Source: an uncultured Candidatus Saccharibacteria bacterium
GTDB taxonomy: Bacteria; Patescibacteriota; Minisyncoccia; Phycocordibacterales; Phycocordibacteraceae
Length of the DNA stretch: 64,000 nt
Direction of reading: 5' to 3'
Assembly (NCBI GenBank): GCA_964546795.1
Contig: CAZJKG010000004.1
Location: forward strand, 18,994 to 82,993
Position 1 is the stretch's first letter, and each line of letters starts with the position of its first letter. The position numbers and the translations under genes are program-made. Below the pieces are notes generated by a model. The model was not told where the DNA came from and ran no database searches. It saw only the letters and a program-made list of their open reading frames with translations. This document shows positions 10,168-61,815 of this stretch, piece by piece.

Positions 10168-10241
10168 CCGCCCCTAGCTCAGCTGGTTAGAGCATCGAGC
10201 TTATACCTCGAGGGTCCTTGGTTCGAGTCCAAGGGGGCGGA
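10168..10241 (+). tRNA. tRNA-Ile (UAU)
   Basis: Acceptor CCGCCCC/GGGGCGG; U8A9; D arm GCUC-AGCUGGUUA-GAGC; anticodon stem UCGAG/CUCGA; loop CUUAUAC; T arm CUUGG-UUCGAGU-CCAAG; discriminator A. Confidence 0.8.
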
Positions 10242-10250
10242 CAAAACAAG

Positions 10251-12780: not shown

Positions 12781-13202
12781 GGGGGTGACCGGCTTTGACG
12801 GTCTGTACCTTGAAAGACGTGCGACGCAGTGCACTCCCGTCATCACTTAAAAACGCGGGAAAACAAACTTGCCAAGAACACTCTTGCAAGCGCAATGAAG
12901 TCGCCTTACTTCGGTAAGGTTGGCGACATCGCGTTCGCCTACGCGACGGCTCGCGGCTAACGCCCGACGCCCTCGCCCAGCGCGACGTTCATCCTCTCGA
13001 GTTCCCGCAGTCGGAGGCATGGGCGGAATTATCTGCGTGATCGTCCCTCGCGTTCCCACGCGTTGGGATTAAATAAGGGATCGAGCAGGAATGGTTTCGT
13101 CTGCGTTCCTCGCATCCTGTTTTAGACACTAACGCTGACTATGCGTCGTAGAAGCGCTTTCATAGACGGATTCGGACCGGAGTTCAACTCTCCGCACCTC
13201 CA
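12781..13202 (+). ncRNA. ssrA: tmRNA (ssrA)
   Basis: 5' end GGGGGUGACCGGCUUUGACGG resembles E. coli GGGGCUGAUUCUGGAUUCGACGGG. 3' end UUCGGACCGGAGUUCAACUCUCCGCACCUCCAC resembles UUCGGACGCGGGUUCAACUCCCGCCAGCUCCACCA. Acceptor GGGGGUG/CACCUCC has G3:U70. Lies immediately downstream of smpB. Confidence 0.8.
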
Positions 13203-13282
13203 CAAAATAACGAGTCCTTCCGAGGACGACTATATTTTGTGAGAATCCCGAGCGTACTCGCGAGGGGCTCCACAACAAACAT

Positions 13283-14085: not shown

Positions 14086-14170
14086 GTGCTGGTGGCGGAA
14101 GCGGTATACGCATCTACTTTGTGAGTAGGTATCCTGCGCGGATGTGCGGGTTCAAGTCCCGTCCAGTACA
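14086..14170 (+). tRNA. Atypical class II tRNA: Leu-type body with UGU (Thr) anticodon, G3:U70, A73
   Basis: Acceptor GUGCUGG/CCAGUAC with G3:U70; D arm UGGCGGAAGCGGUAUACGC (compare E. coli tRNA-Leu UGGCGGAAUUGGUAGACGC); anticodon stem UCUAC/GUAGG; loop UUUGUGA; 16-nt variable stem-loop; T arm GCGGG-UUCAAGU-CCCGU; discriminator A. Abuts the candidate rnpB 3' end. Confidence 0.55.
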
Positions 14171-14464
14171 CATCATTACAGCAGAGTAGTGGCGAGTTTC
14201 CTATTAAAATCTACCCTGTAGGGAAAGTATACCCCACCCGTTGAGCGTTATCCACATCCTTACCCGAGGGATTAAGATAGACCTATGAACAACTTCAAGA
14301 ACCTAGCCGACTTTAATAGAGGGGTGTGGACAACGTGTGGTAAGTCGTATACACTATCTGTATATTAATAACTAGGAAGTTGTGAATTTTTGCGGGAGTG
14401 AAAAATTGCAGAAAGGCTCTACTGCGGGGTGTAATTAGGCTAGCGCGAGCTAGAATCGAAAGCA

Positions 14465-38158: not shown

Positions 38159-38235
38159 TGGTGCCGGCGGAAGGACTTGCACCTTCGACCTTGGCTTTAT
38201 GAATGCCATGCTCTAACTACCTGAGCTACGCCGGC
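38159..38235 (-). tRNA. tRNA-Met (CAU), elongator type; CCA encoded
   Basis: Acceptor GCCGGCG/CGCCGGC (G1-C72); D arm GCUC-AGGUAGUUA-GAGC; anticodon stem UGGCA/AGCCA; loop UUCAUAA; T arm GAAGG-UGCAAGU-CCUUC; A73 then CCA. Confidence 0.8.
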
Positions 38236-44516: not shown

Positions 44517-47500
44517 TTAATGGGAGATTTCTCTGAACTTCGGAGGCCCCGACAATACCTTCACCGTGAGCGGTACGTCAACCGATCTCGTGATGCCTGC
44601 CGCAAGGCCGGTGACGCGCACGACGTATGTTGTAGCGGGGTCAAGCGTTGCGCCTGCGGCAAAGTGTAGCACGGGGACGGTGCCGACTGCGTATTCTTCG
44701 GGAGAGAAGGAGTCCTTCTCGAGGGTGACAGTGACTCCCTCGACCGCGGGGACGAGCTCGGTAGAAAGAACAATCGTCGTGGCGAAGCCGCCTTGCGCGA
44801 TTCCCCATACACGCACGTCCTTCGGCACCACGGACGTCGTACCGCCGGAACGAGAGACCTCAAAGAGTCCTTCGGAGCGTAGGAGGTAATTCGATTCTAT
44901 GACCGATACGGTAACTGCGTCATCCACTGTGCCGGTTTGATTTGAACAGGTCAACGTATACGTGGCCGTTTCCTGCAGATTCGAAATCGTCTCGGTGAAG
45001 GTGCCGTTGGCGGTCTTTGCGCCAGACCAGCTGCCGGAGGCGAGACAGCTGTCTGCATTTTCAGAAGTCCAGGTTAGGATTATTGATTCTCCTTGGTTTA
45101 TTGTCGTTTGATTGGCAGAGAGAGTTACTGTCGGGAGTACGGATGGCGGAGGAATAATGGATTCGCATGAAGTATTATCGGCGCTTTGTATGAATCCTGG
45201 GTTGCAAGTCCACCCTAGATAATATGTAGTGTCATTGCATGAGCCCGCAGGAGATGAGGAACAGAATTGCTGTCCCACAAAAGAGGAGTTTGCGGGCTTC
45301 ATCGTGACCGCTCCAGATGGTTTGACAATATTGCACAGATTGAAACATTGGTCTGTCACGGTCACTATAGGTGCCGTACTGGGGATATTAGGAATATCTT
45401 GAATAAAGGAATAAGGAGGCGCATACTGAAGTGAAGATGGCTCAGTAGTATCTACTATTGGTGCCGGACCAAGATAATCAAGTTGCTGATCTCCAGAAAC
45501 ATAACCAATGAAAGCCGCCGCTACAGTACCAGTTACATAACCAGGGAGAGCTAACCCGACAAGGCTAGCACCGCGCTGGAGATTGAGTGAGATGGTCGTC
45601 TGGTCCACTACAGAGTTTATTGCGAGACCGGTAGCTTCAGCACCAAATCTTATAGCTTTATTATGATCGGATTCGAGACAACCACAGAAAAAATTAGTAA
45701 CAGATTTTAACTTAACAATTGTTGATGAAAAGAGTCCTAATTCACTTCGTTCAATCCCCTGGGGCGGATTCCATATTGTGCTTGAATGGAAAGCCACTGC
45801 GCCAACAAAATTTCGATCTATAGCTTGAATTTGCGCATCAATGACACCAAGATCATGTGATAATTGACCAATTCTTGCTTGCAAAAATTCCGGAAAATTA
45901 GGGTCATTAGGGCCCATGACGTCCACGATTTTCTCAAGAACCATGTTAAAATTAAAAGCAGTAAGTGCCTTATCTGCTTCTAGCATAAACCTCCTTATTG
46001 CTAATTGCGCAATATTTAGAGATGTTCTGTCTTCAATTTTGACGCTGTCGACAAGCATCGGGAAGTTTGCTTGTGTTCGATCGGAAAGTTCACGAGCGGC
46101 TTCCGCAGTTAGAGGAGGAAGCTGTTCTGAAAGAACATCTAGTTTTTCTAGTGATGGTGCACTTTCCACGGCATTTATCTCCGAGACCCTGACTTCCAGT
46201 TCGTGAGGCACCTCTTGCGTAGGCGCTAGGCCAAGTTCAGATTTTAATGAAATATTTTGTCTCTCTTCCATCATTTCAGGGGTCACAAGACCTCTTTCCA
46301 AAAGCCAATTGAATTCCAAATCAACTAACTCGTTAGCTGCTACATTACGAGCTACTTTCAAATCTTCTAAGTTTTGTTTTCTTGTGTCCGAAATAGGTAT
46401 ATTGAAGGCCTTCCTGATAGCTGTGCCTGCTTCCGTGTCAGTAATTCGTTGATCGAGGTCCTGAACAAGTGATTTCTTTCCAACTATTTCTAGTGAGAAT
46501 AATTGTTCTGTCGCCTTATCAAACTCTATTGCTCTCAGTTCCGCTTGTTCGGATTTTAATGCGCCAACCCGATCAGAAACATTTATCCTCTCATCATCTG
46601 TAAGCAAGTTATATTTACGACCATATTGTCGGCCCATTGCATTTAATTCATTTCCTATTTCAATCAATCTCGGACCTTCAAGCCCATTCTCCTTAAGCCA
46701 GATGCCCTTCAAAGAATTTGACTCTTTATACAGATTACTCAGATTCTCTTGGACTTCATCAAGTCGTATTTCTAGGTTGATACTAAATTCTCCGCTCCTT
46801 ATCGAATTTATATCCGTTGGGAGTAATGCTGCAGCCAAGGCCTCATTTGCAGCAATCTCCCCGTCTACCTTTAGAATACTTGAGGGGACGCTGTAACGAA
46901 CATTTTGAGAATTGGCATCTGCAAATGCTATCGTTATTAATTCTGCTGCATGAGCATTATTCTCAGTAATTGCAGTTACGTTTTCCACCACAGTATCAGT
47001 TTTTGCACTGTTAAAGCGCAAAGATGTTGCTTGAGGTAGTTCGGCTTTCAAATCCGCAAGTAATAATCCTACGTTTGGATCATAGGGGATTATATGCACA
47101 TCATCAAGAACCGCAAAGTTTTTCCCTTGTGCGTCTTCAACAGAAATCAAGGGTAATAAGCGTGTTACCCCATCCTTACCGGTTTCACCACTGAATTCTG
47201 GAAATAGTATTCGGAAAATCTGACTCTCTGGATTTAATGTCAATCCACCGCCGCAATCTTGAGATACAGCATTAAGGCCTTCGCCAAGCGAGAAACTCCT
47301 TCCTGGTGTTTGTGCAGGCGACAAATCAGATACATCATTAAGAGCCACTCCTCGCGGAACGATTGAACAGAACGTATTTTGCGCTGGAAGTTTATTAACG
47401 GCGACACGGGATATAGTATTTCCCTTTGCAAAAGAAGAGATGGGCGAGAAGAGATTTTCACCTTGTTTCAAAATATCATTTAGTGCAAAGTGTGAGAACG

Positions 47501-50500
47501 AAGTATCTTCCTTTTTCGCAAGACGTATGGCGTCCCAATTTTCAAAGCCAATGCCAGTGGTTCCATTGATATCGGCCGAGAACGCAAAGCGTTCTTTATC
47601 TTCGGAAATGGCTTTCAAGAGAAGTTGGTCGCTGACATCCTTTACTTTAGGATCAATGAGACGAATTCTGTCACCATCGGGATTTTGCGTGCGCGTGATA
47701 AAACCGACATCCACGTGAGTATTCCCTTTTATCCCTCCGTAATCTTTCTCGCCAATGAGTCCGACTTGGGTTAATGCGAAATCAAGCGCGTCTTGGAGCG
47801 GCATCCCAATCGCGGCGTAGAACTTGCTTAACACATTCATAAGGACGCTCGCTTCCACAAACGCAAGGTCTTCGGAGTCCCCAATAATAGGAGATGCTAT
47901 TGTGCCATCGGGATTGACCTGAAGTGTATCGCGTACACTTTTCCACGTATCACTTGTATCATTTTGATCATACACAAAAGAGGGATAAAGCGCGTCATGC
48001 ACCAATTCCGCCATATCGTTCGCGGACTTACTTGCCAAATGGGACTGAGTTAGGAGTATATTACTGCCAAGCTTATCAACTGGCTCAATGAAAGGTTCGA
48101 GATAGGTATTCAAGGTCGAGAGTTTCTTTAGGTAATCAATGTTGAAATCAGGGACGCCATACGTCTGTTGCAATCCGGCAAGCGTAAAGTGCGGGGTCGC
48201 CCAGAATACAAATCCTTCAGGATCGGCAGATGGAGGAAATATAGCGTTAATGGAAGGAGGAATCGAGAAACGTTGAGTTCCTGTTGGTGTGGCGAAGCTC
48301 TGAACCAAGAAATAGGCCCCGAAAATGCCATTGGTGCCGGTTGCGTATGTCCCAAGTGTTACCGGAGAGACCGTATCGGTAGAATCCGTTATTTGTCCTG
48401 CAGTTGCGCCAAGTCCTTTCATAAGTCCGAGGGGCTCAATGAAATACAGCTTGCCGAAAGTATCTTTAAATCCTACGGACGCGTGTCCGGTGCCTGCCCT
48501 ATCGACAATCGGTCCGGCTTTATTGACAAATGCCGACATCGTTCCTACGCGATTTGCGGCATCAGTATTCCCTACGCGCAGGAACAGATTTCGGATCAAA
48601 GCATAAACGAGAATGGCGGAATCATCGCAGTCGCCACCCTTGCGCGCAAGGGTCTGGAACGGCAGCTGGACATTGTCGTAGCGCGCATCAAAACTCGGCG
48701 TATCAAAGAGATAGGTAATTAAATTCAAACTATAGAAATATTTATAGAATTCTTTGATAAGCGCAATCTCGCTTTTCGCCTTTAAATCAACTCCTTTGGC
48801 TGTCATATCTTTCTCAAATTGATCAAGGAGCAAAGCGATTGACGGATCGGTATACGAATTCACTTCATCAAGGGAGAAGAAACCACCTCTTCCGTTATTT
48901 ATCGTCGAGTTGTAGTGGTAGGTCTTGCTGCTATTCGCATCGATAAAAAGACCAGGGCCTTCAAAGGTGGAATCCCATATGTCATGGCGTCGTTCAAACG
49001 CAAGCATGTCATCGTAGCTTGTCGCTCGAAGCATTCGATTGACGCTTGCTACATCCGTCATGTCAATAAATGCCGAGTGCAGGGAACCCATACGCACTGC
49101 GCCGGGCATGATATAAAATCCCTTGAAGTATCCTGTCTGATCCTGACCGGTCCATGCCATCGCCGTCGTCTCAAGATCAAGGTCCGATGTCCATGATTTG
49201 GCCGCCCCCCACGCTCTATATTCAATCGCGTAGATCGCCTGCACCATGCGGCGCGTTGCGTCAAGCCATGCGGTCTGACGCTGAGGGTCCTTAGCGGAGT
49301 CCGTACCGATTGTCTCAAGCCGATTTTTGTAGGATTGCAAAAGATTCTTGGTTACCTGATACAGCGCTTCTTGTTCAGACATACTTACCGGGATGCCGAG
49401 GGATTCAAGGATTTTGATTCCCATATCGCGCTCCACGAATGGGTTCTGGTAGGTGAATTCTTCGGCGGTGTCGGATTGGCCGGGCAGTATTCCCTTCAGT
49501 TTATACCGCACGGTGCGCTTCAGTACTGATTCCTGATTGAAAATCCTGTACGTGGAGACCGTATAGGTTGACGCATCATCGCTGTAGGTATAGCGGTATT
49601 CGGTCCACGGTTTCCCTTCTCCGTCAAAATACCGGATAGTACTTGCCCGCGCCCCGTCAAATACCACTTCCGAAACCAATTCTTCCGCAGGACTGTACCC
49701 CTTGTATGACAACACGGTGAATGCCGCCGTATCGGCGTATTCGTAGACACCTCTACTGAGGAGCGAGCCGTCTGTTTGGTATTTGTCGATTTCGGCGGTT
49801 TTCAGATACCCACTTGGGTGATACGTGTAGCGGGTCTTTGACGTAACGTCGCCTGCGGCACTGTAGAGAAGACGTTCCGCGCCGGAACGCAGCCGCGTGG
49901 GCGTGTAGAAGAACGTATTTTGCGAGCGGAGCTGCGGCGTGTCCCCCGCATAGAGGGGCACCGTGTGGTACACCAATTCATTGTCTTCCAGAGAATACGT
50001 CCGTACGGCCCCCTGGCGGTTCCGCAGAGAAAGACCGACGGTCTCGGAATCATACGTGCCGTTCACGTAATCAATGAGTGTCTTCTCCGACAGTTGTCCG
50101 TTCGTAATTTTTGTCTTGCTGCTTGAAAGGAGCGTGCTGGGGCTCTGCGTTTCGGAGATAATAGTGTTTTCACCGGTCGCTTTGCCGTTTGCATCATAGG
50201 CGGTCTCGGTAAATGAATACTTCGGCTCGGGCGTTTGCGTGTAGGTGCGGACCGACGCGAGCGTACCATCCGCGCCATAGGAATACAGGTGCTTCTCGTA
50301 GCGATTCGCATCGTAATACAGCAAGTCGTCAGAGAGTTGGCCGTCGGGACGATACGTGTAGTTCTTGGACCATTCGTATGCGTTCGTCTGCACATTGAAG
50401 ACGTGGGAATACTGGAGTTTTCCCTGTTCGTCGTAGCGATTATAGCGTTCGCGATCGCCGCGGCGCATGATTTCTTTCCGTATCGTGCCGCTGGGGTAGT

Positions 50501-53500
50501 ACAGCCGGATGTCTTTTTTGGTGACGCCGTCGAGGCCGTAATTAAATTCTTTTTCGGGGCTTCCCTGCTCGCCATAGAACACCTCGCCGGTCTTCGTTGT
50601 GCCGTCCGGAGCGAATATGGTCGTAGAGAGGAGAGAGGAGGTTGAGATATTGTTGCTAGCGTAGGTATTGATAAACGCGACGGTGCCGTCCAGACGGATG
50701 AATGTCTTGGATGCGGGCGCGGCTGATATGGCCGGTTCAGTCGGAGCCGTCAGCGCCGGAGTCGGCAGAAGTTCTATCGATGGGACAAGTTCTCTGAGCG
50801 GCGTCGTTATATCAATGACTGGCGCATCGGCTGGCACATCCGCAAATGCGGCGGTGACGGAGGGGATGCGATTGCGAGTAACTTTTACCGTGCATGATCC
50901 GACTCCCCTACAATCCCCGGTCCATCCGATGAAACGCCCTCTGTTGTTTGCGTAGGAAGCAAGGGTTACTAACTGGTCGTCCGCAAAAAGGCCTTTGCAT
51001 GTTCCCGAGGAACAGGTGATTCCCGAAGGATTTGAGATAACGCTCCCCGAGCCGCGAACCGATACCCGCAATTCAGACACGCCGGACGCAAAGAGAGGTC
51101 TAAAGAGATATGATCTATCCATCTTGAGAGTGCAGAGATCGGTGCTTGGATAACATTCCGATCCGTTCCATCCGATAAACGAGTTTCCTTTTTCAGCGAC
51201 CGGAGTCAGGGTAACGAGCGACCCCACAGGGAATACTGCAGAACACGTCCCCGGACAATCAATGCCGGAAGGAGATGACTTCACGCGCCCTTGTTCTGTA
51301 GTAAGACCTTCTATTGAAATTGAGGGGCGCAGTGTGAAATTGAAAACTGGTCGATTTCCACTAAGGGAACCACATCTATTACCATAACAGTAGTACTCTC
51401 CATTATTAGGGCCATTAAATGCTCCGCCGGCATCAGGATATACCATAACAATCGAAGGTTTACTAAAGCTCGGCGTCGAGCAGACAGGCGGGCAATTAAT
51501 TCCTTTCCCCGTAACATGGCCGCTTCCATTCACCACGACGGAAAAGTCAGACGGTTGTGATCCAGCCCCTCCAATATCAAAAGCGAGCTGCAGATTTTTT
51601 GAGACCTTCACGGTGCATTTCTTGTGCGCCGTTTTCTGTTCCGCGTCTTCCGCACATGGAGAAGGCGTGCTGTACCTATAATTCGAATTGTCCTGTATGT
51701 CCGCCCATGACCATATGACAGTATCGCTGTAGCCGGACCCGGGAAGCATTATAAGCGTTACGTCATTATCCGTTGTAAATGTGGTGCTGCACACTGGGGC
51801 GTCCGATCTAATACCTCCTACTCCTCCAACACCTCCAACACTTCCAACACCTCCTCCCTGCCAACTGCAATTCATTCCCAGCGGATCAGAAATAATGCGC
51901 CCGCTGCTGCCTAGATAAACAACAGATCCGGCGTCCAAACTAAGGGTGCTTACCGTATCACCCCATGCTTCAAGCTCGTCAAGCGCAAAAACAATTGAGC
52001 TATTAAATTCGTCTTTGGCGTCGGGGAAACGCTCCGTCGTTAAACTCCCCGAACCCGTCGCGCGGACGCGCATCTGCGTCACCCCCTCCCACGAACCGAC
52101 CGCTTCAAGCTGTTTTTTTGTATCGGTTGCCTGGCGGGCTATGGGGTTGTTTCTCATCGGACTCTCGTAGGTCGCGACGTCTTTCCAGGCGCCGGACTGG
52201 AACACGGAGAGCGTTATGGTGAAATTCGCGTTGGCGATATAGTTCGGACTTGAGAGGAAGAACATTCCTTCCGTCGGAGCAATGGCTTTAATGCTCTTGA
52301 GCGAAACAGATTTATTGAAATTCACCGTCGCTTCATACGTGAATGAACACGGACTCGATGGAAGCAGGAGACAGAGTCCGTAGTTGCCGACCTGATTGCC
52401 CTGAATGCCGTCTTTGACTCTTGAGAAATTCCTGTAGCGCTCGGAGAATACGGGGTCTGTAGGCATTGACCACGCCGGGCCCGTGAATTGCTGACTGCCG
52501 GTTATCGTTGAGGCGGGATCAAGCACTCGGTTTGGAGCCGACGCTTGATATGTTTTGTCGCTAAAAGATGCAAGGACTTTGAATTCCGAACCTGCCGAAG
52601 GAAACTTGCAGGGACCAAGAGCGGAAAGACATGGTTGCGACCAACCGAGGAATGCTCCTTTTGTCTCAACGGCATCCAAACTCACGGCACCGATATTTCC
52701 GAATTCGGCGGTGCAGCTCACGTTCGGGCAGTCAATGCCCGCCGGAGTGGATACGACGCGGCCGACTCCGTCAAGCGTTACCGAGAGTTTTGTTTTCCCG
52801 AATTTCGCTTTCACGAAACGGTCTTTTGAAAAACTAAAGACGCAGGAAAAATTCGGATATTGCCAGAGTCCGGGTTTATTTTGTGCCGCGTTCCATCCGG
52901 TGCGATAACAGGCATAATCCGATGCTTCCCAGCCCAAAAATACAGAGTCATTCAGTGGGGTCTCGGTAAGATACTGACTCGTAAAGCTGCCGTATTGAGA
53001 ATAAGGAAATAGTGCTCTACAGGTCGGCGGACAGCTAATGCCCGCGGGAACCGATGTTACTTTCCCGTCCCCAACCACCAAGACAGAGATGGAGATCGGT
53101 TCCCCTATTTGGATCGGTTTTGAATATATGTCCAATGTCTTATCCCCGTCCATGGTAATGGTACAGGAGGGGAACGTCGTACCGCTGCATGTTCCGCCCC
53201 ACCCGAGAAATCTTCCTTGAGTACTGACTCCGTCCTGACTGTTATAGCCAAGATTGTATGTAGCGGTTGTAACAGTGCCGGGCGGAAAACGTACTGAGCA
53301 AGTTGATGTCGCTTCAACGCCAGAACCATTATTGAAAGAGCAGCCGTCTAAGGTTCCTGGTTGGAACAGGATGCCGCCAGAAATTGATTCGCCGGGCTTC
53401 AACTTCATGGACAGCGTCAACGTTTTCCCGCTGCCAAAAACGGCTTTCGCTGTTTTATCGCCATCAAGGGTAATGACACACCTACTGAACCAACTCTCAT

Positions 53501-56500
53501 CACCTACACAATCGCCTCCCCAATTGTAAAATGTATCAGATCTGTTATAGGCCCGAAGATCAACGTCGGTTCCCACATTGAATGTGGCACTACAGGTCGG
53601 CGGACAGTCAATACCGCGCGGACCCGAAACATGACCATCTCCTTGAACTTCAATGTTCAACGTCTTGGTTAAGGTTAAATCAAAGTTTGCCGTGACAGAA
53701 GAATCTTGGTTTATCAAAGATATACAGTCAGCGCTATACCCGGTGCAGAATCCGGACCAAGAAGAGAATGATCTTCCGAGAATTGTCAGTGCTTCCGCGT
53801 GTGAACCTCCTTTCGCTGGTGCCTCAAGCATGATTCTTTGATTTTGGGCATATCTTTGCACACAGGTCGTAACTAACGGTTTCTCGGGCGAAGGACAATT
53901 TGTAAGACTTACCTTACCATCTGAATATGCGATTCTCCCGCCTCCAGTGACGTTGATAGTAAGCTTGGGTCCTTGTCCGAATATCACGCTAAAAGATTTA
54001 TTATCATCAACTTTAACGAGACATGCTTGACCCGGTGGAGGAGCAACAAAACACGGCCCTTGTATGGAATTAGAGGATTCTCCCGGATCCGGATATGGTA
54101 CAAGATATAACTGTTCTCCAGGATTGTATTGTGCACTGCAGGTCGGCGGACAATTGATTTCGCTGCCGTGGTAAACACCATTGGACGAAACCTTACCGGG
54201 ACCAGTTACACTGACGGAGATTGTCTTTGTAGGAACCGCCGCAATATTTGCCGTGACGGTTTTGTCCGCATCCATGATGACGAGGCAGGCACTACTGTAT
54301 GGATTACTCTGTGTGCATACGCTTGAAAAGCTCTCTAATTTAAGCCCCGGTTGGGTGAAAGTCGTATAAAGAATGACTTTGGCACCGGGAACAAACTTGT
54401 CTTCGCATTTGTGAGGACACTGTATACTCCCACCTCTACCGTCTGAATATACACGGAATTCTGGGCTATCGGCTCCCGTACCTGTAAGCGACACCTTCAG
54501 TGTCTTTCTCATATCCAGGAAGTTCGCTTCAACCGACTTGCTTGCCTCCATGCTCACCGTGCAGGTGGTCGCGGTGCCAGTGCAGGCGCCGGACCATTCT
54601 TGGAATTGGAACCCCGGAGTCAGACGTACAGTGAGCGTGACGCTGTCGGTTTTGGCAAACCCGAAATGACAATATTTATTATTGTAACGAGTAAGATCGC
54701 AACCATTGCCGTTGGAAAGACCAATATATCCTCCATCCGGGATATTTTGAGAAATTGTCAGTACGGAAAGGTTCGTAAAGGTTGGTTGCAGGCCGATGTC
54801 GTAGAGAGGTGAGGTCGTGACCGTACAAGTTGACAGGGAAGCGTCCGGGCATCCATCAAAGCTGAGTAGAGATATTCCCGGTTTCGGCGTCGCAGTGAGG
54901 TTCACGGATGTGCCGGGGGGAAAATCAAACTCACATGCGGGTGGACAACTGATGCCTTGAGGTGATGAGGTGACACTTCCGGGCGCATTGTCGCCGAGAT
55001 TTCCCACACGGATCTTCCCGACATTCTCAACAAACCAAGGTGTGACGGTAAAGTCGGAGAGGGTTGGCTTGAGCGTACAAGGGTTCAGGTGCCCGACACA
55101 TCCAGGATCGGGACCCCTCCAATCGCGAAACACTTTACCATCGTCTGGAAGCGCGGCGAGGGTGAGCGTCTCGCCGGCGGGCACGCGCACCCTGCATACA
55201 GCGGGCGCGCGGCACTCCTCGGAGGAATCGGCGAGAGTAATGCTACCAAAATTGGTCGGCGTTATGGTGACGAGGCGGTTCGCGGCATTGAATACATTGA
55301 GGTCATAGATATCGGAAAAGATGTCTATGCCTCCTGAAGCGGAACCGGCAGAAACGTTCGCTTGGCCATCGACATGGATCTTCACTCCGCTCACATCCTC
55401 CCACGAGCCGATGATCTCAGGAACCCATCCGCCCATAGTGTCGTCACTCGATGACCGTTCAATGGTACGCACTTCCCTCCACACTCCCCCGATCTTGAGG
55501 GAGGTGGTGATAGTCACCGCTCCTGTGGCTTTGAATCCTCCAGAACCGTTATATCCGTAGTGGATATACTGTCCGCTGTATGTTGACCCTATTTGGCCCA
55601 CCGGAACCGATTGATGGAAATCAAGTTCGGCATCATAGGTGAAGCGGCATGATGTCGGAGTCACGCCCCCGATGGAACAACCTACTCGGTGGCGTGTTTC
55701 ATTCTTGTCATCTGTTATGTCAGCAAAGGTGCCTTCGGTTGATTTGCTGACGGTGATAGTGCCGCTGACGGTGGTTTTCGGGTCGACACTGTAGTTGAGG
55801 ACTGGTGTTGCAAAGGGCGATTTAAATGTCTCTCTTGCGTCCACGAAATTCGCCGTAACCGACTTGCTCGACTCCATGCTGACCGTGCAGGTGGTCGCGG
55901 TGCCGGTGCAGGCGCCGGTCCATTCTTTGAATTTGAAGAACTGGTTCGTATGGGGAAGTGCGGTAATCGTAACGGTAGCGGTCTTGACAAAATCGAAATT
56001 GCAATTTTTATTATTATAACGAGTAAGATCGCAAAAATGGCCGCTGGGAAGACGAACGTATCCTCCATTCGGAATATTTTGAGAAATTGTCAGCACGGAA
56101 AGATTCGTAAATATGGGCTGCATAGAGATGTCGTAGAGAGGTGAGGCCGTGACCGTACAGATTGACAGGGAATAGTCCGGGCATCCATAAAAGGTGAGAA
56201 GAGATGAGCCGGATTTTGGTGTTGCCGTCATGTTCACCGACGTACCGGAAGGGAAATTGAAGGTGCAGGTCGGAGGACACTCAATGCCCGAGGGGGATGA
56301 GGTAGTGATGCCAAGTTCACTACTATAGACCGAGATGCGTCCGACATTGTCGACAAACCATGGATTGACTGTGAGGTCGTAGAGGGTGGGTTTGAGCGTG
56401 CAGGGCTTTGCCGCTCCGACACATCCAGGGTCGGGCCCTCGCCAATCGCGAAGGGTCTTGCCATCGTCCGGAATCGCCGTGAAGGTGATCGTCTCTCCGA

Positions 56501-58592
56501 CGGGTACGTACACTTTGCACTCCGATGGCTCGCGGCAATCCGTGGCGGAGTCGGAAGAGACGATATGACCCGGACCCTGCGGCGTCAGAGTGATGGTGCG
56601 ACTCGGGACGTTGTATACGTTGAGATCGTAGAGGTCGGAATAAAAGTATACGTCTGTATCAGACGTAGCGGCTGCAGAGGTGCGGATGTTCCCTTCGACA
56701 TGCACCTTCACTCCAGTGACCCCTTCCCACGACCCGGTGATTTCGGGAATCCATTCGCCTATTTGTTTTTGTCCTGCAGCCCTTGATTGTTCAGTTTTAT
56801 TTATTTCTTGCCACACTCCCCCGATTTTCAAGAATGTGGTGATGGTATGGGTTGCTGTAATCGGAGCGTAACCGGGAAAGGCGATGTCGCTCCTGTGTCC
56901 GTTATAGGTTGACCCTATCTGACCCACCGGAACCGATTGATGGAAATCCAGTTCAACATCATAGGTGAAGTCGCAATGTCCCAGGGCAGCTCCCTTGATG
57001 CGGCAAGCGACTCGCTGAGATGTTCCTTTATTGTCATCTTTGACGTCATTGAGCGTGCCCGTGGTTGCATGATTCGTGCCGTTCGCGCTCCCGCTGATGG
57101 TTGTCTTGGGATCGATGGTGTAGTTGTGCGGTATGGTGGATCCTTTTGAAAATACGTCTCGTACCATGCTCACATCCAAGAAGTTCGCTTCAACCGACTT
57201 GCTCGCCTCCATGCTGACCGTGCAGGTGGTCGCGGTGCCGGAGCAGGCGCCGGACCAGTTCTGAAATTGAAATCCTCGATAGGGTTTTGCCGTAAGTGTG
57301 ACGGTGGCGGTTTTTTGATACTCCCAGCTGCATCTGGGTCCATACTCACCGGTACAAGAGTAATCGGGACCGGAAATAGATCCTGCACTTCGTATATTCA
57401 TCGAAACCAGCAGCACGGAAAGGCTTGTAAAGGTTGGTTGCAGGCCGATGTCATAGAGAGGTGAGGCCGTGACCGTGCAAGTTGGCAGGTAAACGTCCGA
57501 GCATCCCCAAAATCTCCAAAAAGATGTCCCCGGTTTCGGCGTTGCAGTGAGGGTTACTGACGTACCGGAAGGGAAATTAAAGGTGCACGTTGGCGGGCAG
57601 TTGATGCCCGCGGGAGAGGATGTAACGGTTTCTAATGAATTTTCACCGATTCCTCCTATATTTACGCGTCCGACATTATCAACAAACCAGGGATCGGCTC
57701 TAACGTCATACGATGCGGAAGTGAACGTGCAGGGCTTTGCCGCTCCGACACATCCAGGGTCGGGCCCTCGCCAATCGCGAAGGGTCTTGCCATCGTCCGG
57801 AATCGCCGTGAAGGTGATCGTCTCTCCGACGGGTACGTACACTTTGCACTCCGATGGCTCGCGGCAATCCGTGGCGGAGTCGGAAGAGACGATATGACCC
57901 GGACCCTGCGGCGTCAGAGTGATGGTGCGACTCGGGACGTTGTATACGTTGAGATCGTAGAGGTCGGAATAAAAGTATACGTCTGTATCAGACGTAGCGG
58001 CTGCAGAGGTGCGGATGTTCCCTTCGACATGCACCTTCACTCCAGTGACCCCTTCCCACGACCCGGTGATTTCGGGAATCCATTCGCCTATTTGTTTTTG
58101 TCCTGCAGCCCTTGATTGTTCAGTTTTATTTATTTCTTGCCACACTCCCCCGATTTTCAAGAATGTGGTGATGGTATGGGTTGCTGTAATCGGAGCGTAA
58201 CCGGGAAAGGCGATGTCGCTCCTGTGTCCGTTATAGGTTGACCCTATCTGACCCACCGGAACCGATTGATGGAAATCCAGTTCAACATCATAGGTGAAGT
58301 CGCAATGTCCCAGGGCAGCTCCCTTGATGCGGCAAGCGACTCGCTGAGATGTTCCTTTATTGTCATCTTTGACGTCATTGAGCGTGCCCGTGGTTGCATG
58401 ATTCGTGCCGTTCGCGCTCCCGCTGATGGTTGTCTTGGGATCGATGGTGTGATTGACTACGGTTGCCGCTCGAACGGCATGAGGAAGCAACAACACTATC
58501 GCGCTACACAATAAGAAAATAATTGTCTGGCGGATAAGGGAAACGGTCGCGAGCGCGTATGGCGACAAAGGAGCAATCGTGCTGGAGCGCAT
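44517..58592 (-). CDS. Giant (4691-aa) secreted surface protein: tandem InlB-B-repeat-like Ig domains, RHS/YD-repeat core, coiled-coil and C-terminal Ig-like domains
   Basis: Signal peptide. More than 10 copies of an ~80-aa module (G.G.V.SSP.GI.CPPTC...F..G..V.L.A.P..G..F..W.G.C) matching the divergent InlB B-repeat pattern. YD repeats (YTYRPDGQLS, YDANGKATGE, YEYADTAAF). A GGVGGVGGVGG linker. C-terminal TVTLSANQTTINQGESIILTWTSENADSC Ig-like domain. Confidence 0.85.
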   Translation of the reverse strand: MRSSTIAPLSPYALATVSLIRQTIIFLLCSAIVLLLPHAVRAATVVNHTIDPKTTISGSANGTNHATTGTLNDVKDDNKGTSQRVACRIKGAALGHCDFTYDVELDFHQSVPVGQIGSTYNGHRSDIAFPGYAPITATHTITTFLKIGGVWQEINKTEQSRAAGQKQIGEWIPEITGSWEGVTGVKVHVEGNIRTSAAATSDTDVYFYSDLYDLNVYNVPSRTITLTPQGPGHIVSSDSATDCREPSECKVYVPVGETITFTAIPDDGKTLRDWRGPDPGCVGAAKPCTFTSASYDVRADPWFVDNVGRVNIGGIGENSLETVTSSPAGINCPPTCTFNFPSGTSVTLTATPKPGTSFWRFWGCSDVYLPTCTVTASPLYDIGLQPTFTSLSVLLVSMNIRSAGSISGPDYSCTGEYGPRCSWEYQKTATVTLTAKPYRGFQFQNWSGACSGTATTCTVSMEASKSVEANFLDVSMVRDVFSKGSTIPHNYTIDPKTTISGSANGTNHATTGTLNDVKDDNKGTSQRVACRIKGAALGHCDFTYDVELDFHQSVPVGQIGSTYNGHRSDIAFPGYAPITATHTITTFLKIGGVWQEINKTEQSRAAGQKQIGEWIPEITGSWEGVTGVKVHVEGNIRTSAAATSDTDVYFYSDLYDLNVYNVPSRTITLTPQGPGHIVSSDSATDCREPSECKVYVPVGETITFTAIPDDGKTLRDWRGPDPGCVGAAKPCTLKPTLYDLTVNPWFVDNVGRISVYSSELGITTSSPSGIECPPTCTFNFPSGTSVNMTATPKSGSSLLTFYGCPDYSLSICTVTASPLYDISMQPIFTNLSVLTISQNIPNGGYVRLPSGHFCDLTRYNNKNCNFDFVKTATVTITALPHTNQFFKFKEWTGACTGTATTCTVSMESSKSVTANFVDARETFKSPFATPVLNYSVDPKTTVSGTITVSKSTEGTFADITDDKNETRHRVGCSIGGVTPTSCRFTYDAELDFHQSVPVGQIGSTYSGQYIHYGYNGSGGFKATGAVTITTSLKIGGVWREVRTIERSSSDDTMGGWVPEIIGSWEDVSGVKIHVDGQANVSAGSASGGIDIFSDIYDLNVFNAANRLVTITPTNFGSITLADSSEECRAPAVCRVRVPAGETLTLAALPDDGKVFRDWRGPDPGCVGHLNPCTLKPTLSDFTVTPWFVENVGKIRVGNLGDNAPGSVTSSPQGISCPPACEFDFPPGTSVNLTATPKPGISLLSFDGCPDASLSTCTVTTSPLYDIGLQPTFTNLSVLTISQNIPDGGYIGLSNGNGCDLTRYNNKYCHFGFAKTDSVTLTVRLTPGFQFQEWSGACTGTATTCTVSMEASKSVEANFLDMRKTLKVSLTGTGADSPEFRVYSDGRGGSIQCPHKCEDKFVPGAKVILYTTFTQPGLKLESFSSVCTQSNPYSSACLVIMDADKTVTANIAAVPTKTISVSVTGPGKVSSNGVYHGSEINCPPTCSAQYNPGEQLYLVPYPDPGESSNSIQGPCFVAPPPGQACLVKVDDNKSFSVIFGQGPKLTINVTGGGRIAYSDGKVSLTNCPSPEKPLVTTCVQRYAQNQRIMLEAPAKGGSHAEALTILGRSFSSWSGFCTGYSADCISLINQDSSVTANFDLTLTKTLNIEVQGDGHVSGPRGIDCPPTCSATFNVGTDVDLRAYNRSDTFYNWGGDCVGDESWFSRCVITLDGDKTAKAVFGSGKTLTLSMKLKPGESISGGILFQPGTLDGCSFNNGSGVEATSTCSVRFPPGTVTTATYNLGYNSQDGVSTQGRFLGWGGTCSGTTFPSCTITMDGDKTLDIYSKPIQIGEPISISVLVVGDGKVTSVPAGISCPPTCRALFPYSQYGSFTSQYLTETPLNDSVFLGWEASDYACYRTGWNAAQNKPGLWQYPNFSCVFSFSKDRFVKAKFGKTKLSVTLDGVGRVVSTPAGIDCPNVSCTAEFGNIGAVSLDAVETKGAFLGWSQPCLSALGPCKFPSAGSEFKVLASFSDKTYQASAPNRVLDPASTITGSQQFTGPAWSMPTDPVFSERYRNFSRVKDGIQGNQVGNYGLCLLLPSSPCSFTYEATVNFNKSVSLKSIKAIAPTEGMFFLSSPNYIANANFTITLSVFQSGAWKDVATYESPMRNNPIARQATDTKKQLEAVGSWEGVTQMRVRATGSGSLTTERFPDAKDEFNSSIVFALDELEAWGDTVSTLSLDAGSVVYLGSSGRIISDPLGMNCSWQGGGVGSVGGVGGVGGIRSDAPVCSTTFTTDNDVTLIMLPGSGYSDTVIWSWADIQDNSNYRYSTPSPCAEDAEQKTAHKKCTVKVSKNLQLAFDIGGAGSQPSDFSVVVNGSGHVTGKGINCPPVCSTPSFSKPSIVMVYPDAGGAFNGPNNGEYYCYGNRCGSLSGNRPVFNFTLRPSISIEGLTTEQGRVKSSPSGIDCPGTCSAVFPVGSLVTLTPVAEKGNSFIGWNGSECYPSTDLCTLKMDRSYLFRPLFASGVSELRVSVRGSGSVISNPSGITCSSGTCKGLFADDQLVTLASYANNRGRFIGWTGDCRGVGSCTVKVTRNRIPSVTAAFADVPADAPVIDITTPLRELVPSIELLPTPALTAPTEPAISAAPASKTFIRLDGTVAFINTYASNNISTSSLLSTTIFAPDGTTKTGEVFYGEQGSPEKEFNYGLDGVTKKDIRLYYPSGTIRKEIMRRGDRERYNRYDEQGKLQYSHVFNVQTNAYEWSKNYTYRPDGQLSDDLLYYDANRYEKHLYSYGADGTLASVRTYTQTPEPKYSFTETAYDANGKATGENTIISETQSPSTLLSSSKTKITNGQLSEKTLIDYVNGTYDSETVGLSLRNRQGAVRTYSLEDNELVYHTVPLYAGDTPQLRSQNTFFYTPTRLRSGAERLLYSAAGDVTSKTRYTYHPSGYLKTAEIDKYQTDGSLLSRGVYEYADTAAFTVLSYKGYSPAEELVSEVVFDGARASTIRYFDGEGKPWTEYRYTYSDDASTYTVSTYRIFNQESVLKRTVRYKLKGILPGQSDTAEEFTYQNPFVERDMGIKILESLGIPVSMSEQEALYQVTKNLLQSYKNRLETIGTDSAKDPQRQTAWLDATRRMVQAIYAIEYRAWGAAKSWTSDLDLETTAMAWTGQDQTGYFKGFYIMPGAVRMGSLHSAFIDMTDVASVNRMLRATSYDDMLAFERRHDIWDSTFEGPGLFIDANSSKTYHYNSTINNGRGGFFSLDEVNSYTDPSIALLLDQFEKDMTAKGVDLKAKSEIALIKEFYKYFYSLNLITYLFDTPSFDARYDNVQLPFQTLARKGGDCDDSAILVYALIRNLFLRVGNTDAANRVGTMSAFVNKAGPIVDRAGTGHASVGFKDTFGKLYFIEPLGLMKGLGATAGQITDSTDTVSPVTLGTYATGTNGIFGAYFLVQSFATPTGTQRFSIPPSINAIFPPSADPEGFVFWATPHFTLAGLQQTYGVPDFNIDYLKKLSTLNTYLEPFIEPVDKLGSNILLTQSHLASKSANDMAELVHDALYPSFVYDQNDTSDTWKSVRDTLQVNPDGTIASPIIGDSEDLAFVEASVLMNVLSKFYAAIGMPLQDALDFALTQVGLIGEKDYGGIKGNTHVDVGFITRTQNPDGDRIRLIDPKVKDVSDQLLLKAISEDKERFAFSADINGTTGIGFENWDAIRLAKKEDTSFSHFALNDILKQGENLFSPISSFAKGNTISRVAVNKLPAQNTFCSIVPRGVALNDVSDLSPAQTPGRSFSLGEGLNAVSQDCGGGLTLNPESQIFRILFPEFSGETGKDGVTRLLPLISVEDAQGKNFAVLDDVHIIPYDPNVGLLLADLKAELPQATSLRFNSAKTDTVVENVTAITENNAHAAELITIAFADANSQNVRYSVPSSILKVDGEIAANEALAAALLPTDINSIRSGEFSINLEIRLDEVQENLSNLYKESNSLKGIWLKENGLEGPRLIEIGNELNAMGRQYGRKYNLLTDDERINVSDRVGALKSEQAELRAIEFDKATEQLFSLEIVGKKSLVQDLDQRITDTEAGTAIRKAFNIPISDTRKQNLEDLKVARNVAANELVDLEFNWLLERGLVTPEMMEERQNISLKSELGLAPTQEVPHELEVRVSEINAVESAPSLEKLDVLSEQLPPLTAEAARELSDRTQANFPMLVDSVKIEDRTSLNIAQLAIRRFMLEADKALTAFNFNMVLEKIVDVMGPNDPNFPEFLQARIGQLSHDLGVIDAQIQAIDRNFVGAVAFHSSTIWNPPQGIERSELGLFSSTIVKLKSVTNFFCGCLESDHNKAIRFGAEATGLAINSVVDQTTISLNLQRGASLVGLALPGYVTGTVAAAFIGYVSGDQQLDYLGPAPIVDTTEPSSLQYAPPYSFIQDIPNIPSTAPIVTVTDQCFNLCNIVKPSGAVTMKPANSSFVGQQFCSSSPAGSCNDTTYYLGWTCNPGFIQSADNTSCESIIPPPSVLPTVTLSANQTTINQGESIILTWTSENADSCLASGSWSGAKTANGTFTETISNLQETATYTLTCSNQTGTVDDAVTVSVIESNYLLRSEGLFEVSRSGGTTSVVPKDVRVWGIAQGGFATTIVLSTELVPAVEGVTVTLEKDSFSPEEYAVGTVPVLHFAAGATLDPATTYVVRVTGLAAGITRSVDVPLTVKVLSGPPKFREISH
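56380..58480. repeat. Near-identical intragenic tandem duplication (~770 bp identical, period 1329 bp) inside the giant gene
   Basis: The six-frame track shows identical translated segments offset by exactly 1329 nt (e.g. 56386-56568 versus 57715-57897; 56565-56786 versus 57894-58115). The protein shows two identical ~260-aa modules and then a third, diverged copy. Confidence 0.85.
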
Positions 58593-59223: not shown

Positions 59224-59472
59224 TTACTCAGTATAGAAATACTGCCGCAAATCATCTTCTGGCACGTATCGCGCGGCCTGTCGAAAAATGCCGACTACGG
59301 CACCAGTTTTTAATTCTTTATGTTTCGAAATGAGTAATACTTGTTTGTCGTATTGTCCGAAACGGACAAGCTTCACATGACTCCCTCGCTGGCTCTCGAT
59401 TGCAAAACCAAACTGTTTCAATATCTGAACGATATCCGATCCCGAAAGTCGCCTCGGTTTAGGCATGCGCAA
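59224..59472 (-). CDS. hicA: HicA-family toxin
   Basis: RRLSGSDIVQILKQFGFAIESQRGSHVKLVR...LLISKHKELKTGAVVGIFRQAA fits the HicA pattern. Confidence 0.7.
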   Translation of the reverse strand: MRMPKPRRLSGSDIVQILKQFGFAIESQRGSHVKLVRFGQYDKQVLLISKHKELKTGAVVGIFRQAARYVPEDDLRQYFYTE

Positions 59473-59689
59473 GAGTAGGAAGTTCGAAATTTACTAGTAC
59501 TGATGGATCGGTCGCGAAGCCGAGTTTGGACAGATCTTCGTCTTCTACAAACAATCCGACTGCTTCCCGAATATTTTCGGTAAGTTCATCAAGGGTATCC
59601 CCCTGTGTGACAATGGGTACGTTCACACCCTCCGCGACATATCCCCCATCGCTTTCTGTAATCTGAAATTGAATAATATTCCTTTTCAT
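59459..59689 (-). CDS. hicB: HicB-family antitoxin (UPF0150)
   Basis: FQITESDGGYVAEGVNVPIVTQGDTLDELTENIREAVGLFVED. Overlaps the downstream hicA. Confidence 0.7.
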   Translation of the reverse strand: MKRNIIQFQITESDGGYVAEGVNVPIVTQGDTLDELTENIREAVGLFVEDEDLSKLGFATDPSVLVNFELPTLAHA

Positions 59690-60227: not shown

Positions 60228-60476
60228 TCAATTGCGGGTTTTGAAGAGTTTCTTTAGCTCACTACGTCCGCTTCCGCTTTTCCACCATAATTCTCGCGCT
60301 TTAGCTTCTTTCATAGTTGGGAACTCTTCGAGATGAAATATTTTAAGCGGACGACGATGCTTCGTCGCTGTGACTTGCCCAGCATTGTGTTGAGTTAGTC
60401 GCCGCTCGACATTATCGGAGAAACCAACGTAGGTACGTTTATCTTGGTCGCTCATCAAAATGTAAACGAAGTACAT
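60228..60476 (-). CDS. GIY-YIG nuclease family protein (paralog 3)
   Basis: MYFVYILMSDQDKRTYVGFSDNVERRLTQHN. Lies about 150 bp downstream of the intron-containing tRNA-fMet. Confidence 0.8.
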   Translation of the reverse strand: MYFVYILMSDQDKRTYVGFSDNVERRLTQHNAGQVTATKHRRPLKIFHLEEFPTMKEAKARELWWKSGSGRSELKKLFKTRN

Positions 60477-60627
60477 ATATTAACTCTAGCGTATTTTATT
60501 GCGACCACTTAAAGCGAGTTTCGCAACAAGCAAATGAGAAAGCCGCCTTTCGGCGGCCTCTCATTATTGAATCTTCATTGCGGGTCGCCTGTGGCGAACC
60601 TCGCAACAAATTTTCTCTGAAAATTTG

Positions 60628-60950
60628 TTGCGGGGGCCGGAATTGAACCGGCGTCTGGAGGTTATGCTTACCACTACAATTTTCATTGCCCTATGGTTTG
60701 TGGTCTGGACTATGCCTTCACCCCTTATCACTTTCAGTAAGAAAGTGGTAAAGGGTATCTACCGTCTAGTCTCTACACCTTCTCCTTGTCGCTTTCATCA
60801 CTGAAAGTGGTGAAAGTGACAAGGAGCTTGGCTCGGTGTTGCCTTTCGCATTGCGAGAGGGGTTCGCCGAATTTGGCAGATAATCTTATGCGCAATTACT
60901 CACGCACACGCCCGTGAAAGCCTCCCGAGGTACCTCTCCTCTACCCCGCG
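60628..60950 (-). tRNA. Initiator-like tRNA-Met (CAU) interrupted by a 252-nt intron in the anticodon loop
   Basis: Exon 1 is 60919-60950: CGCGGGG-U-A-GAGG-AGAGGUA-CCUC-G-GGAGG-CU. Exon 2 is 60628-60666: CAUAA-CCUCC-AGAC-GCCGG-UUCAAUU-CCGGC-CCCCGCA-A. The joined loop CUCAUAA is the canonical Met loop. C1xA72 is unpaired, a bacterial initiator hallmark, while pairs 2-7 are perfect. Confidence 0.65.
60667..60918 (-). other. Group-I-like intron in tRNA-fMet, inserted between positions 33 and 34
   Basis: 5' exon ends in U33. Intron begins UUCACGGGCG and ends ...GUGGUAAG with a terminal G. Size (252 nt) is typical of bacterial tRNA group I introns. No ORF inside. Fold not verified. Confidence 0.5.
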
Positions 60951-61047: not shown

Positions 61048-61815
61048 ATGAAAATAATTGCGCGAGCGAAAGCAGAACTGTTAAGACATCAAGGAAAAAG
61101 TATCAAAGAAATTGCTCGTTTAGTTGACGTCAGTCAAGGTACCGCAAGTCGTTGGTGCTCTGGTATCAATCTTTCCCCAGAACAGCATCGCGAGCTTGAA
61201 AAGAAGCGGCGAGAAGCGGGTGCAAAAGCGCTTGCTCCTTGGATACGTAGGAATCGTGAATTGAAACAAAACGATATTAAGAAACAAAAACAGCAAGGTC
61301 GCCAAGATCTTGGTCGGATGACAAAAAAGGATTTATTTATACTTGGTCTTGGTCTTTACTGGGGAGAGGGATATAAACGCGGTAGTCAAGAATGGGGATT
61401 TACGAATTCGGACCCTGGAATGATAGGAGTCATTCTTGTATGGCTTCTCAAATATTATGACGTACCAATTGAACGCATCATCGCCCGACTCACGATAAAT
61501 CAACTTTATAAGAATCAAACTGAGCGTCTTATGAGCGCATGGGCATGCGAAACGGGTATCCCTCTTTCTCAATTCGGAAAACCAACTTTCATAAGCGGCT
61601 ACAACAATTCTAAATTGGATGAACGCACCTATCGAGGTACTCTCCGCATTAAAGTACATCGGGGAACATCACTTCGACGACGTATATTGTCGAGCATCGC
61701 CGAAATACAGAATCAAATCACTTTTAACTCGCGAAAGACGGATTCGAAGCGCGCGATAGTGCGGCGCGCAAGCGATTCTGAAAGATTGAAAGCAGAACCC
61801 TCGTGCGCTATCTGA
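61048..61815 (+). CDS. LAGLIDADG-type homing-endonuclease-like protein with N-terminal HTH (paralog of 36843..37439)
   Basis: N-terminal HTH (KSIKEIARLVDVSQGTASRWC); LFILGLGLYWGEGYK is a LAGLIDADG-motif variant. Free-standing, about 100 bp from the intron-containing tRNA-fMet. Confidence 0.6.
   Translation: MKIIARAKAELLRHQGKSIKEIARLVDVSQGTASRWCSGINLSPEQHRELEKKRREAGAKALAPWIRRNRELKQNDIKKQKQQGRQDLGRMTKKDLFILGLGLYWGEGYKRGSQEWGFTNSDPGMIGVILVWLLKYYDVPIERIIARLTINQLYKNQTERLMSAWACETGIPLSQFGKPTFISGYNNSKLDERTYRGTLRIKVHRGTSLRRRILSSIAEIQNQITFNSRKTDSKRAIVRRASDSERLKAEPSCAI

Follow-up and report, generated by a model that had tools for sequence, protein, structure and literature searches.

At the locus examined here, a tRNA gene with the anticodon CAU lies on the reverse strand at positions 60628-60950 of the 64-kb stretch of DNA that was analyzed as a whole (hereafter the window), and it is divided by an insert that falls exactly between U33 and C34 of the anticodon loop (Table 1). 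When the two exons are joined they read CGCGGGGTAGAGGAGAGGTACCTCGGGAGGCT/CATAACCTCCAGACGCCGGTTCAATTCCGGCCCCCGCAA, the slash marking the point of ligation, with GGAGGCU-CAUAACCUCC as the spliced junction. ARAGORN folds this product into a 71-nt tRNA-Met(CAU) cloverleaf in which pairs 2-7 are intact, A73 is the discriminator base, and the anticodon loop is CUCAUAA. C1 and A72 are unpaired in the cloverleaf (class CA), which is the initiator mark at 1:72. The preliminary description of this DNA had proposed an initiator-type tRNA with just these features and had allowed that its anticodon stem might fail as part of a standard tRNA; the tRNA is present as proposed, and the joined exons fold accordingly.

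Table 1. Features of the interrupted initiator tRNA gene and its flanks. Positions are those of the window; nt numbers are those of the intron unless a length is given.
Feature	Position	Strand	Length or intron nt	Remarks
Putative sigma-70-like promoter	60984-60957	(-)		TTGCCG-16 nt-TATACT; consensus scan; ends 7 nt upstream of the tRNA 5' end
tRNA-fMet exon 1 (positions 1-33)	60950-60919	(-)	32 nt	CGCGGGGTAGAGGAGAGGTACCTCGGGAGGCT; acceptor 5' strand, D arm GAGG/CCUC with A11:U24, anticodon-stem 5' strand GGAGG, C32 U33
Group I (IC3-type) intron	60918-60667	(-)	252 nt	Starts TTCACGGGCG, ends GTGGTAAG; no ORF; RF00028, family profile, covariation
P1	60921-60919/60912-60910	(-)	Guide nt 7-9	G31 C32 U33 with guide GGC; L1 is the 6-nt loop UUCACG
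P2	60908-60887	(-)	nt 11-19/24-32	GNRA tetraloop GUAA, nt 20-23; 7/7 tested pairs compensatory
P3	60882-60875/60763-60756	(-)	nt 37-44/156-163	6/8 pairs compensatory
P4-P5 domain	60870-60833	(-)	P4 nt 49-54/81-86; P5 nt 58-59/76-77; P5a nt 63-66/70-73	
P6 and long P6a-c hairpin	60832-60777	(-)	P6 nt 87-88/141-142; P6a-c nt 93-137	12/18 pairs compensatory; inverted repeat I1
P7 (guanosine-binding helix)	60773-60768/60711-60707	(-)	G146, bulged A147, G148-U151/nt 208-212	Pseudoknot with P3
P8/P8a hairpin	60755-60721	(-)	nt 164-198	9/14 pairs compensatory; repeats D3 and I3
P9 three-way junction	60703-60671	(-)	nt 216-248	P9 216-219/245-248; P9a 223-224/228-229; P9b 231-234/239-242
tRNA-fMet exon 2 (positions 34-73)	60666-60628	(-)	39 nt	CATAACCTCC...CCCCGCAA; anticodon CAU, A37 A38, anticodon-stem 3' strand CCUCC, 4-nt variable loop, T arm, acceptor 3' strand, A73; no encoded CCA
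Near-perfect palindrome	60599-60635	(-)	17-nt arms	Arms 60599-60615 and 60619-60635, 94% complementary; final 8 nt of the tRNA fall within the 5' arm
GC-rich hairpin	60522-60564	(-)		GAGAGGCCGCC-GAAA-GGCGGCUUUCUC, then a U-rich tail; fold; lies directly 3' of the tRNA in L231

Run on the window with default settings, ARAGORN did not detect the split tRNA gene, and an Rfam scan at the gathering threshold reported neither a tRNA nor an intron at this position. In its intron mode, ARAGORN recovered the right cloverleaf and a 252-nt intron but set the junction at its default position, giving a tRNA-Glu(UUC). This junction was rejected because the exon side would end in C and the intron in U and because intron-less orthologues read CAU. 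[quoted passage not shown] A 3' splice site at 60674, where the Rfam alignment ends, was also considered in place of 60667 and was discarded, as it would not restore a tRNA. For annotation, the consequence is that tRNA finders overlook or mislabel the gene, and the genome would falsely seem to be without an initiator tRNA.

A scan of metagenomes for the predicted ligated sequence returned at least 120 contigs with an uninterrupted tRNA, and these intron-less orthologues read GGAGGCT/CATAACCTCC without a break. The best match, at locus L231, is identical to the predicted spliced product in 70 of 71 bases, the sole difference being a purine-for-purine change in the T loop; 13 contigs match in 69 of 71 bases among the matches listed. 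The junction can be regarded as fixed because intron-less orthologues at the same locus carry it as predicted.

Group I membership was assessed with a covariance model, as the preliminary description had advised. In a permissive Rfam scan, RF00028 matched over its full length at 60674-60926 on the reverse strand (47.5 bits; E = 4.7e-11 locally and 5.5e-9 over the whole window). The score is 2.5 bits short of the gathering cut-off of 50 bits, which is a curation threshold and not a structural feature. Scores of undoubted sister introns with this model span 41.3-73 bits, the closest relative (L071) having 41.3; therefore, a sub-threshold score is normal for the clade. The window contains no other RF00028 match and no further sign of a group I intron. 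A profile of 33 homologues, with the intron's own sequence excluded, likewise gave a single match in the window (nhmmer; 60655-60921, reverse strand; E = 1.2e-40), and the intron sequence is not repeated elsewhere within the 64 kb.

The intron was aligned with 33 short introns of initiator tRNAs (alignment A1; 34 sequences), and a P1-P9 structure was written on the alignment. In the intron itself this structure is canonical apart from one C.A in P4. Across the 34 sequences, 86.6% of cells are paired, compared with 31-47% in controls in which the 3' partners were slid by 1-3 columns, and the core folds from P1 to P9, a point on which the preliminary description had left room for failure. Compensatory change affects 48 pairs and 311 cells, values reached by none of 500 shuffles, and is seen in P2, P3, P5a, P6a, P8, P9, P9a, and P9b. 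P4 is 100% paired across the 34 sequences, and all four pairs of P5a are compensatory, as are three of four in P9, both in P9a, and all four in P9b, which is capped by a GAAA tetraloop (60684-60681). All five pairs of P7 are invariant and paired in 34/34 sequences, within the invariant block AAGGTGTAGAGACT. Relatives carry A-GNRA-U loops in the same P2 columns of A1.

At the 5' splice site, U33 forms a U.G wobble with intron nt 7 in all 34 sequences, the neighboring pair is C-G in 34/34, and the guide GGGC is invariant or nearly so in A1. The terminal G (omega-G; 60667, intron nt 252) likewise lies in an invariant column (34/34). A longer P1, in which UUCAC would pair with GUGAG and the U.G would lie one base inside the intron, was rejected because nt 1-6 are unconserved, the GGGC guide is invariant, and GUGAG is part of the covarying P2. 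P1 has three pairs only, and no convincing candidate for P10 was found. The sequence departs from near-invariant columns at only two positions, namely nt 1, which is U (as it is in the closest relative), and nt 81, where G.U is replaced by G-C. The tips of P6 and P8 are extensions whose columns in A1 are occupied in this intron alone. The P8 tip (60741-60752) and the P6 tip (60803-60814) have in common the 12-nt motif GAAAGTGGT(A/G)AA, which suggests that one small hairpin may have been copied into two peripheral loops. The covarying P1-P9 structure, the splice-site U.G, the RF00028 match, and the intron-less orthologues together bear out the earlier proposal of a group-I-like intron of 252 nt that separates U33 from C34 and ends in G.

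The initiator tRNA gene is thus, very probably, interrupted at U33/C34 by a 252-nt IC3-type group I intron that is free of an endonuclease and is predicted to splice by the group I route. We infer the individual steps from established group I chemistry; the junction itself comes from the intron-less orthologues. Transcription would start from the putative promoter just upstream, and the intron would fold into the standard P1-P9 core that covariation supports. G31 C32 U33 would pair with the guide GGC, which brings U33 into the 5'-splice-site U.G wobble. An external guanosine held at P7 would attack after U33, and G252 would then occupy the same site. The freed 3'-OH of U33 would in turn attack after G252, joining CU to CAUAA and rebuilding the CUCAUAA loop. 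Since the gene lacks CCA, this would be added after splicing.

A true group I intron might have lost its autonomy, so that it needs a protein helper or splices poorly and limits the supply of initiator tRNA. This would accord with the mismatch C53.A82 in an otherwise invariant P4, where relatives have G-C, U-A, or U.G, and with the 3-bp P1 and the want of a clear P10; the lineage-specific extensions of P6 and P8 and an RF00028 score that is low within the family range point the same way. However, all invariant core positions are retained, a C.A pair can replace a G.U wobble, and the still lower score of the closest relative makes low scores a feature of the clade; moreover, no maturase-like gene is found in or next to the intron. 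Such dependence is considered unlikely.

Group I splicing requires free guanosine or GTP, and Patescibacteria rely on hosts for nucleotides. Therefore, the intron, retained without an endonuclease in what may be the genome's sole initiator gene, could conceivably act as a putative gate through which the availability of guanosine would govern how much initiator tRNA is made and hence all translation initiation, and the P6/P8 extensions together with an acceptor-sequestering 3' hairpin might tune such a gate. A role of this kind is considered quite improbable, and the patchy presence of the intron in close relatives is better explained by a selfish remnant than by a regulator under selection.

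The gene order gatA-orf189-tRNA is common to this locus and to the intron-less relatives. The most similar GatA proteins among the matches listed belong to intron-less relatives (L224, 79% identity; L153 and L139, 78%; L140, 77%), whereas GatA of the intron-bearing L071 is 74% identical; L071 and at least 10 other Patescibacteria loci carry an intron at the same locus. Synteny and GatA similarity connect the locus with MAGs labelled Kaiserbacteria, Paceibacterota, and Parcubacteria, so that the DNA probably stems from one of the Paceibacteria, within the Patescibacteria. Because the same gatA-orf189-tRNA locus is found with the intron in some genomes and without it in others, the intron is polymorphic among close relatives, and its presence or absence at one orthologous locus makes this a clean natural case in which to study how introns are gained and lost when no endonuclease is involved. 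The intron-less alleles in close relatives could also mean that the interrupted copy is a dead pseudogene and that a second, uninterrupted initiator gene elsewhere in the genome does the work, the more so as the view covers 64 kb of that genome. Nevertheless, the exons are identical in 70 of 71 bases to functional-looking orthologues, with the T-loop purine as the only difference; the gene sits at the very locus where relatives keep tRNA-fMet; the intron core is intact and has undergone compensatory change; and a promoter-like site is present. A pseudogene is therefore regarded as very improbable.

The identity of the host tRNA was considered next to that of other CAU tRNAs. Its D stem, as folded by ARAGORN, consists of G10-C25, A11-U24, G12-C23, and G13-C22 and so includes the initiator-type A11:U24, and the 5' strand of the acceptor, CGCGGGG, is the same as in classic initiators. 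The 5' exon of L077 is identical to exon 1. Two of the three initiator G-C pairs at 29-41, 30-40, and 31-39 are present (A29-U41, G30-C40, and G31-C39). The A29-U41 pair appears to be a clade trait and not decay, because intron-less orthologues have it too and 22 of 69 initiator-type hosts, among the matches listed, likewise have two of the three G-C pairs. These hosts come from a scan for the intron core plus GCATAAYC, made with one genome per species, which gave at least 120 matches; of 110 hosts classed by their 1:72 pair, 69 count as initiator-type and 33 as elongator or Ile2-type, with 8 left unassigned, among the matches listed. All classed CAU hosts are split at 33/34.

Elongator tRNA-Met and tRNA-Ile2 of other bacteria also have introns at 33/34. 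The 33 of 110 hosts with a paired 1:72, together with the incomplete set of G-C pairs, could thus suggest that the present host is an elongator tRNA-Met or a lysidine-modified tRNA-Ile2 and not an initiator. Against this stand C1xA72, A11:U24, and the acceptor strand of classic initiators, as well as two other tRNAs of the window that fill the other roles. One is a CAU tRNA at 38159-38235 with a G1-C72 pair (ARAGORN), which is not an initiator; the other is a tRNA-Ile with the anticodon UAU at 10168-10242 (+). The latter suggests that AUA may be read without a lysidine-modified CAU tRNA, which fits an elongator tRNA-Met at 38159-38235. An elongator or Ile2 host is accordingly hardly plausible. 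The notion that the insert is some other element (a small transposable element, a group II intron, or an archaeal-type intron) with an accidental likeness to group I introns, to which the silence of the default tools might lend color, has a negligible chance of being right and is refuted by the full-length covariance-model match, the covariation in all core helices, the profile match at E = 1.2e-40, and the lack of a second copy of the insert in the window.

Two further RNA genes of the window were noted. A tRNA at 14086-14171 (+), called as Thr(UGU) by ARAGORN and matching the Rfam tRNA model at 47.4 bits, extends over 86 nt; its long variable arm and D stem of only 3 bp are odd for a class I tRNA. 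A tmRNA at 12781-13205 (+) is 425 nt long and contains large insertions relative to its Rfam model (91.7 bits).

Downstream of the tRNA, the preliminary description had reported a perfect palindrome that takes in the tRNA 3' end and had read it as the terminator. The palindrome is real, with arms slightly longer than claimed (17 nt), but it is not perfect, its arms being 94% complementary, and it is probably not the terminator. It has no U-tract, was not flagged by the terminator scan, and lies inside an insertion of ~56 nt that is missing from the nearest intron-less relative, L231. Relative to L231, this insertion (60572-60627, reverse strand) separates the tRNA 3' end from the GC-rich hairpin; it is flanked by an imperfect 17-nt direct repeat (60568-60584 and 60618-60634; spacing, 50 nt) and could have arisen when the tRNA 3' trailer was duplicated locally. 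No further copy of the insertion and palindrome region was found within the 64-kb window. In L077 and L085, long hairpins also reach into the tRNA 3' end; such extended 3' hairpins recur in the clade. The GC-rich hairpin, which is conserved and has a U-rich tail, was not flagged by the terminator scan either, but it would seem a likelier terminator than the palindrome.

The neighboring protein genes were examined in the same region. An ORF of 255 aa (61048-61815, forward strand) is divergent from the tRNA gene and overlaps orf189, on the other strand, over its last ~34 codons. It was considered as a homing endonuclease for the intron and rejected, giving only helix-turn-helix Pfam hits and no PDB relative. 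Its N-terminal domain is of the helix-turn-helix type; a LAGLIDADG-like motif, LGLGLYWGEGYK, was noted by eye, and no Pfam endonuclease was found in it. Homologues with 27-34% identity lie beside the intron-bearing L105, L067, and L013 and also beside the intron-less L226, L130, L161, and L208. Because they also adjoin intron-less tRNA-fMet genes, the ORF has no link to the intron and represents a gene of sporadic, locus-specific occurrence. Matches in other loci to a 32-residue "remnant" proved to be the conserved end of orf189 read in antisense. A small GIY-YIG protein (PF01541, E = 2.4e-17) is encoded at 60228-60476 (-), a short way downstream of the tRNA transcription unit, and homologues of it occur near the tRNA in only a few related loci. 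Farther along, two overlapping ORFs of 82 and 76 aa at 59224-59689 (-) resemble, by eye, a HicA/HicB toxin-antitoxin pair, and one ORF occupies 44517-58592 (-), coding for 4,691 aa and containing long internal repeats, in which antisense ORFs of 51 aa and of 70-82 aa recur ~1.3 kb apart.

Introns related to the present one are widespread. At least 69 further introns of initiator tRNAs were found across many phyla, and many MAGs labelled Patescibacteria carry related introns among the matches listed. In 23 of the 69 initiator hosts among the matches listed, the intron is long (350-720 nt), and most of the long introns contain an ORF of ~149 aa near the 5' end; the introns with such ORFs in L024, L070, L103, L114, and ~19 other loci measure 600-720 nt. 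Two of these ORFs were tested, one of them from a Patescibacteria MAG, and matched PF11645 at E = 6e-45 and 4e-53; PF11645 is the PD-(D/E)XK endonuclease family of I-Ssp6803I. Some of the long ORF-bearing introns lie in MAGs labelled Patescibacteria or Saccharibacteria, a phylum without reported intron-borne endonuclease genes in tRNA-fMet. A second, weak RF00028 match (29.9 bits) was noted at 906-1139 (-) of L013, from a Paceibacterota MAG, beside a tRNA gene at 1189-1260, and may represent another intron-bearing tRNA. The intron described here contains no ORF and no endonuclease remnant. It cannot home by itself and descends, in minimal, stripped-down form, from a family that includes mobile introns; some members of the clade possess it and others lack it.

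Assignment to the IC3 type was made by architecture and by scores with the family profile. The architecture comprises a P9 junction, a short P2, and GNRA loops on P2 and P9, with no P5abc. With the family profile the intron scores 115.5 bits, introns labelled IC3 in a published survey (PMC13011429) score 119-167 bits, and IA1, IB2, and Microgenomatia introns score 16-32 bits; of the Microgenomatia Met introns, one scores 31.9 bits and the other was undetected. Among IC3 introns of other tRNAs, those of Azoarcus tRNA-Ile and Anabaena tRNA-Leu have long been known (Reinhold-Hurek and Shub 1992 and Zaug et al. 1993, as cited in PMC13011429). They resemble the present intron in their compact P1-P9 fold without P5abc and in their GNRA tetraloops on P2 and P9 but differ in host tRNA and insertion site (36/37 in Azoarcus and 34/35 in tRNA-Leu). 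The Azoarcus intron and the present one presumably also have the conserved blocks AAAUUCGG, CCGAGCCAAG, GGUGUAGAGACUAGACGG, and AUAGUCC in common.

In a survey of 4,934 complete genomes published in 2026, tRNA-fMet 33/34, tRNA-Leu 34/35, and tRNA-Arg 36/37 are the well-characterized insertion sites (PMC13011429). Among its 95 complete Patescibacteria genomes, no tRNA intron was assigned to subgroup IC, and Met(CAU) 33/34 introns were found in two Microgenomatia genomes (Nakagawa et al. 2026, PMC13011429). The Patescibacteria introns of that study share with the present one the probable phylum, in two Microgenomatia genomes the Met(CAU) 33/34 site, and the fact of having been overlooked by standard annotation tools; in contrast, none of them is IC, and the present intron groups with the introns labelled IC3. 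IC3-type tRNA-fMet introns are numerous in Patescibacteria once draft genomes and metagenomes are considered, and some of them contain homing endonuclease genes; the lack of IC-type tRNA introns from Patescibacteria in the survey is therefore probably an effect of sampling.

The closest parallel was drawn with the tRNA-fMet introns of cyanobacteria, to which the preliminary description had likened the intron, and rightly, as host gene, site, and core blocks are the same. Such introns are known from Synechocystis, Scytonema, and Dermocarpa (Biniszkiewicz et al. 1994, as cited in PMC11622646 and PMC13011429). The initiator-tRNA intron of Synechocystis, whose description dates back 30 years, is frequently misannotated (PMC11622646), tRNA-fMet 33/34 is an established insertion site (PMC13011429; PMC11622646), and PF11645 genes occur within cyanobacterial tRNA-fMet introns (PMC13011429). 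The cyanobacterial introns also share with the present one the GGGC guide, the splice-site U.G, and a terminal G. The Scytonema locus L017 and many Nostoc loci align with the present intron throughout, with a nucleotide identity of ~70-74% to the cyanobacterial copies over the 3' half. Unlike the present intron, the cyanobacterial introns carry an extra hairpin in L1 or an endonuclease ORF, whereas this one has a minimal L1 of 6 nt, P6/P8 extensions of its own, and a Patescibacteria-type genome. Introns that bear I-Ssp6803I belong to the same family and occupy the same site, and the present copy differs from them in having no endonuclease ORF. It is a further case of well-established biology, group I introns at 33/34 of initiator tRNAs having been known since 1994.
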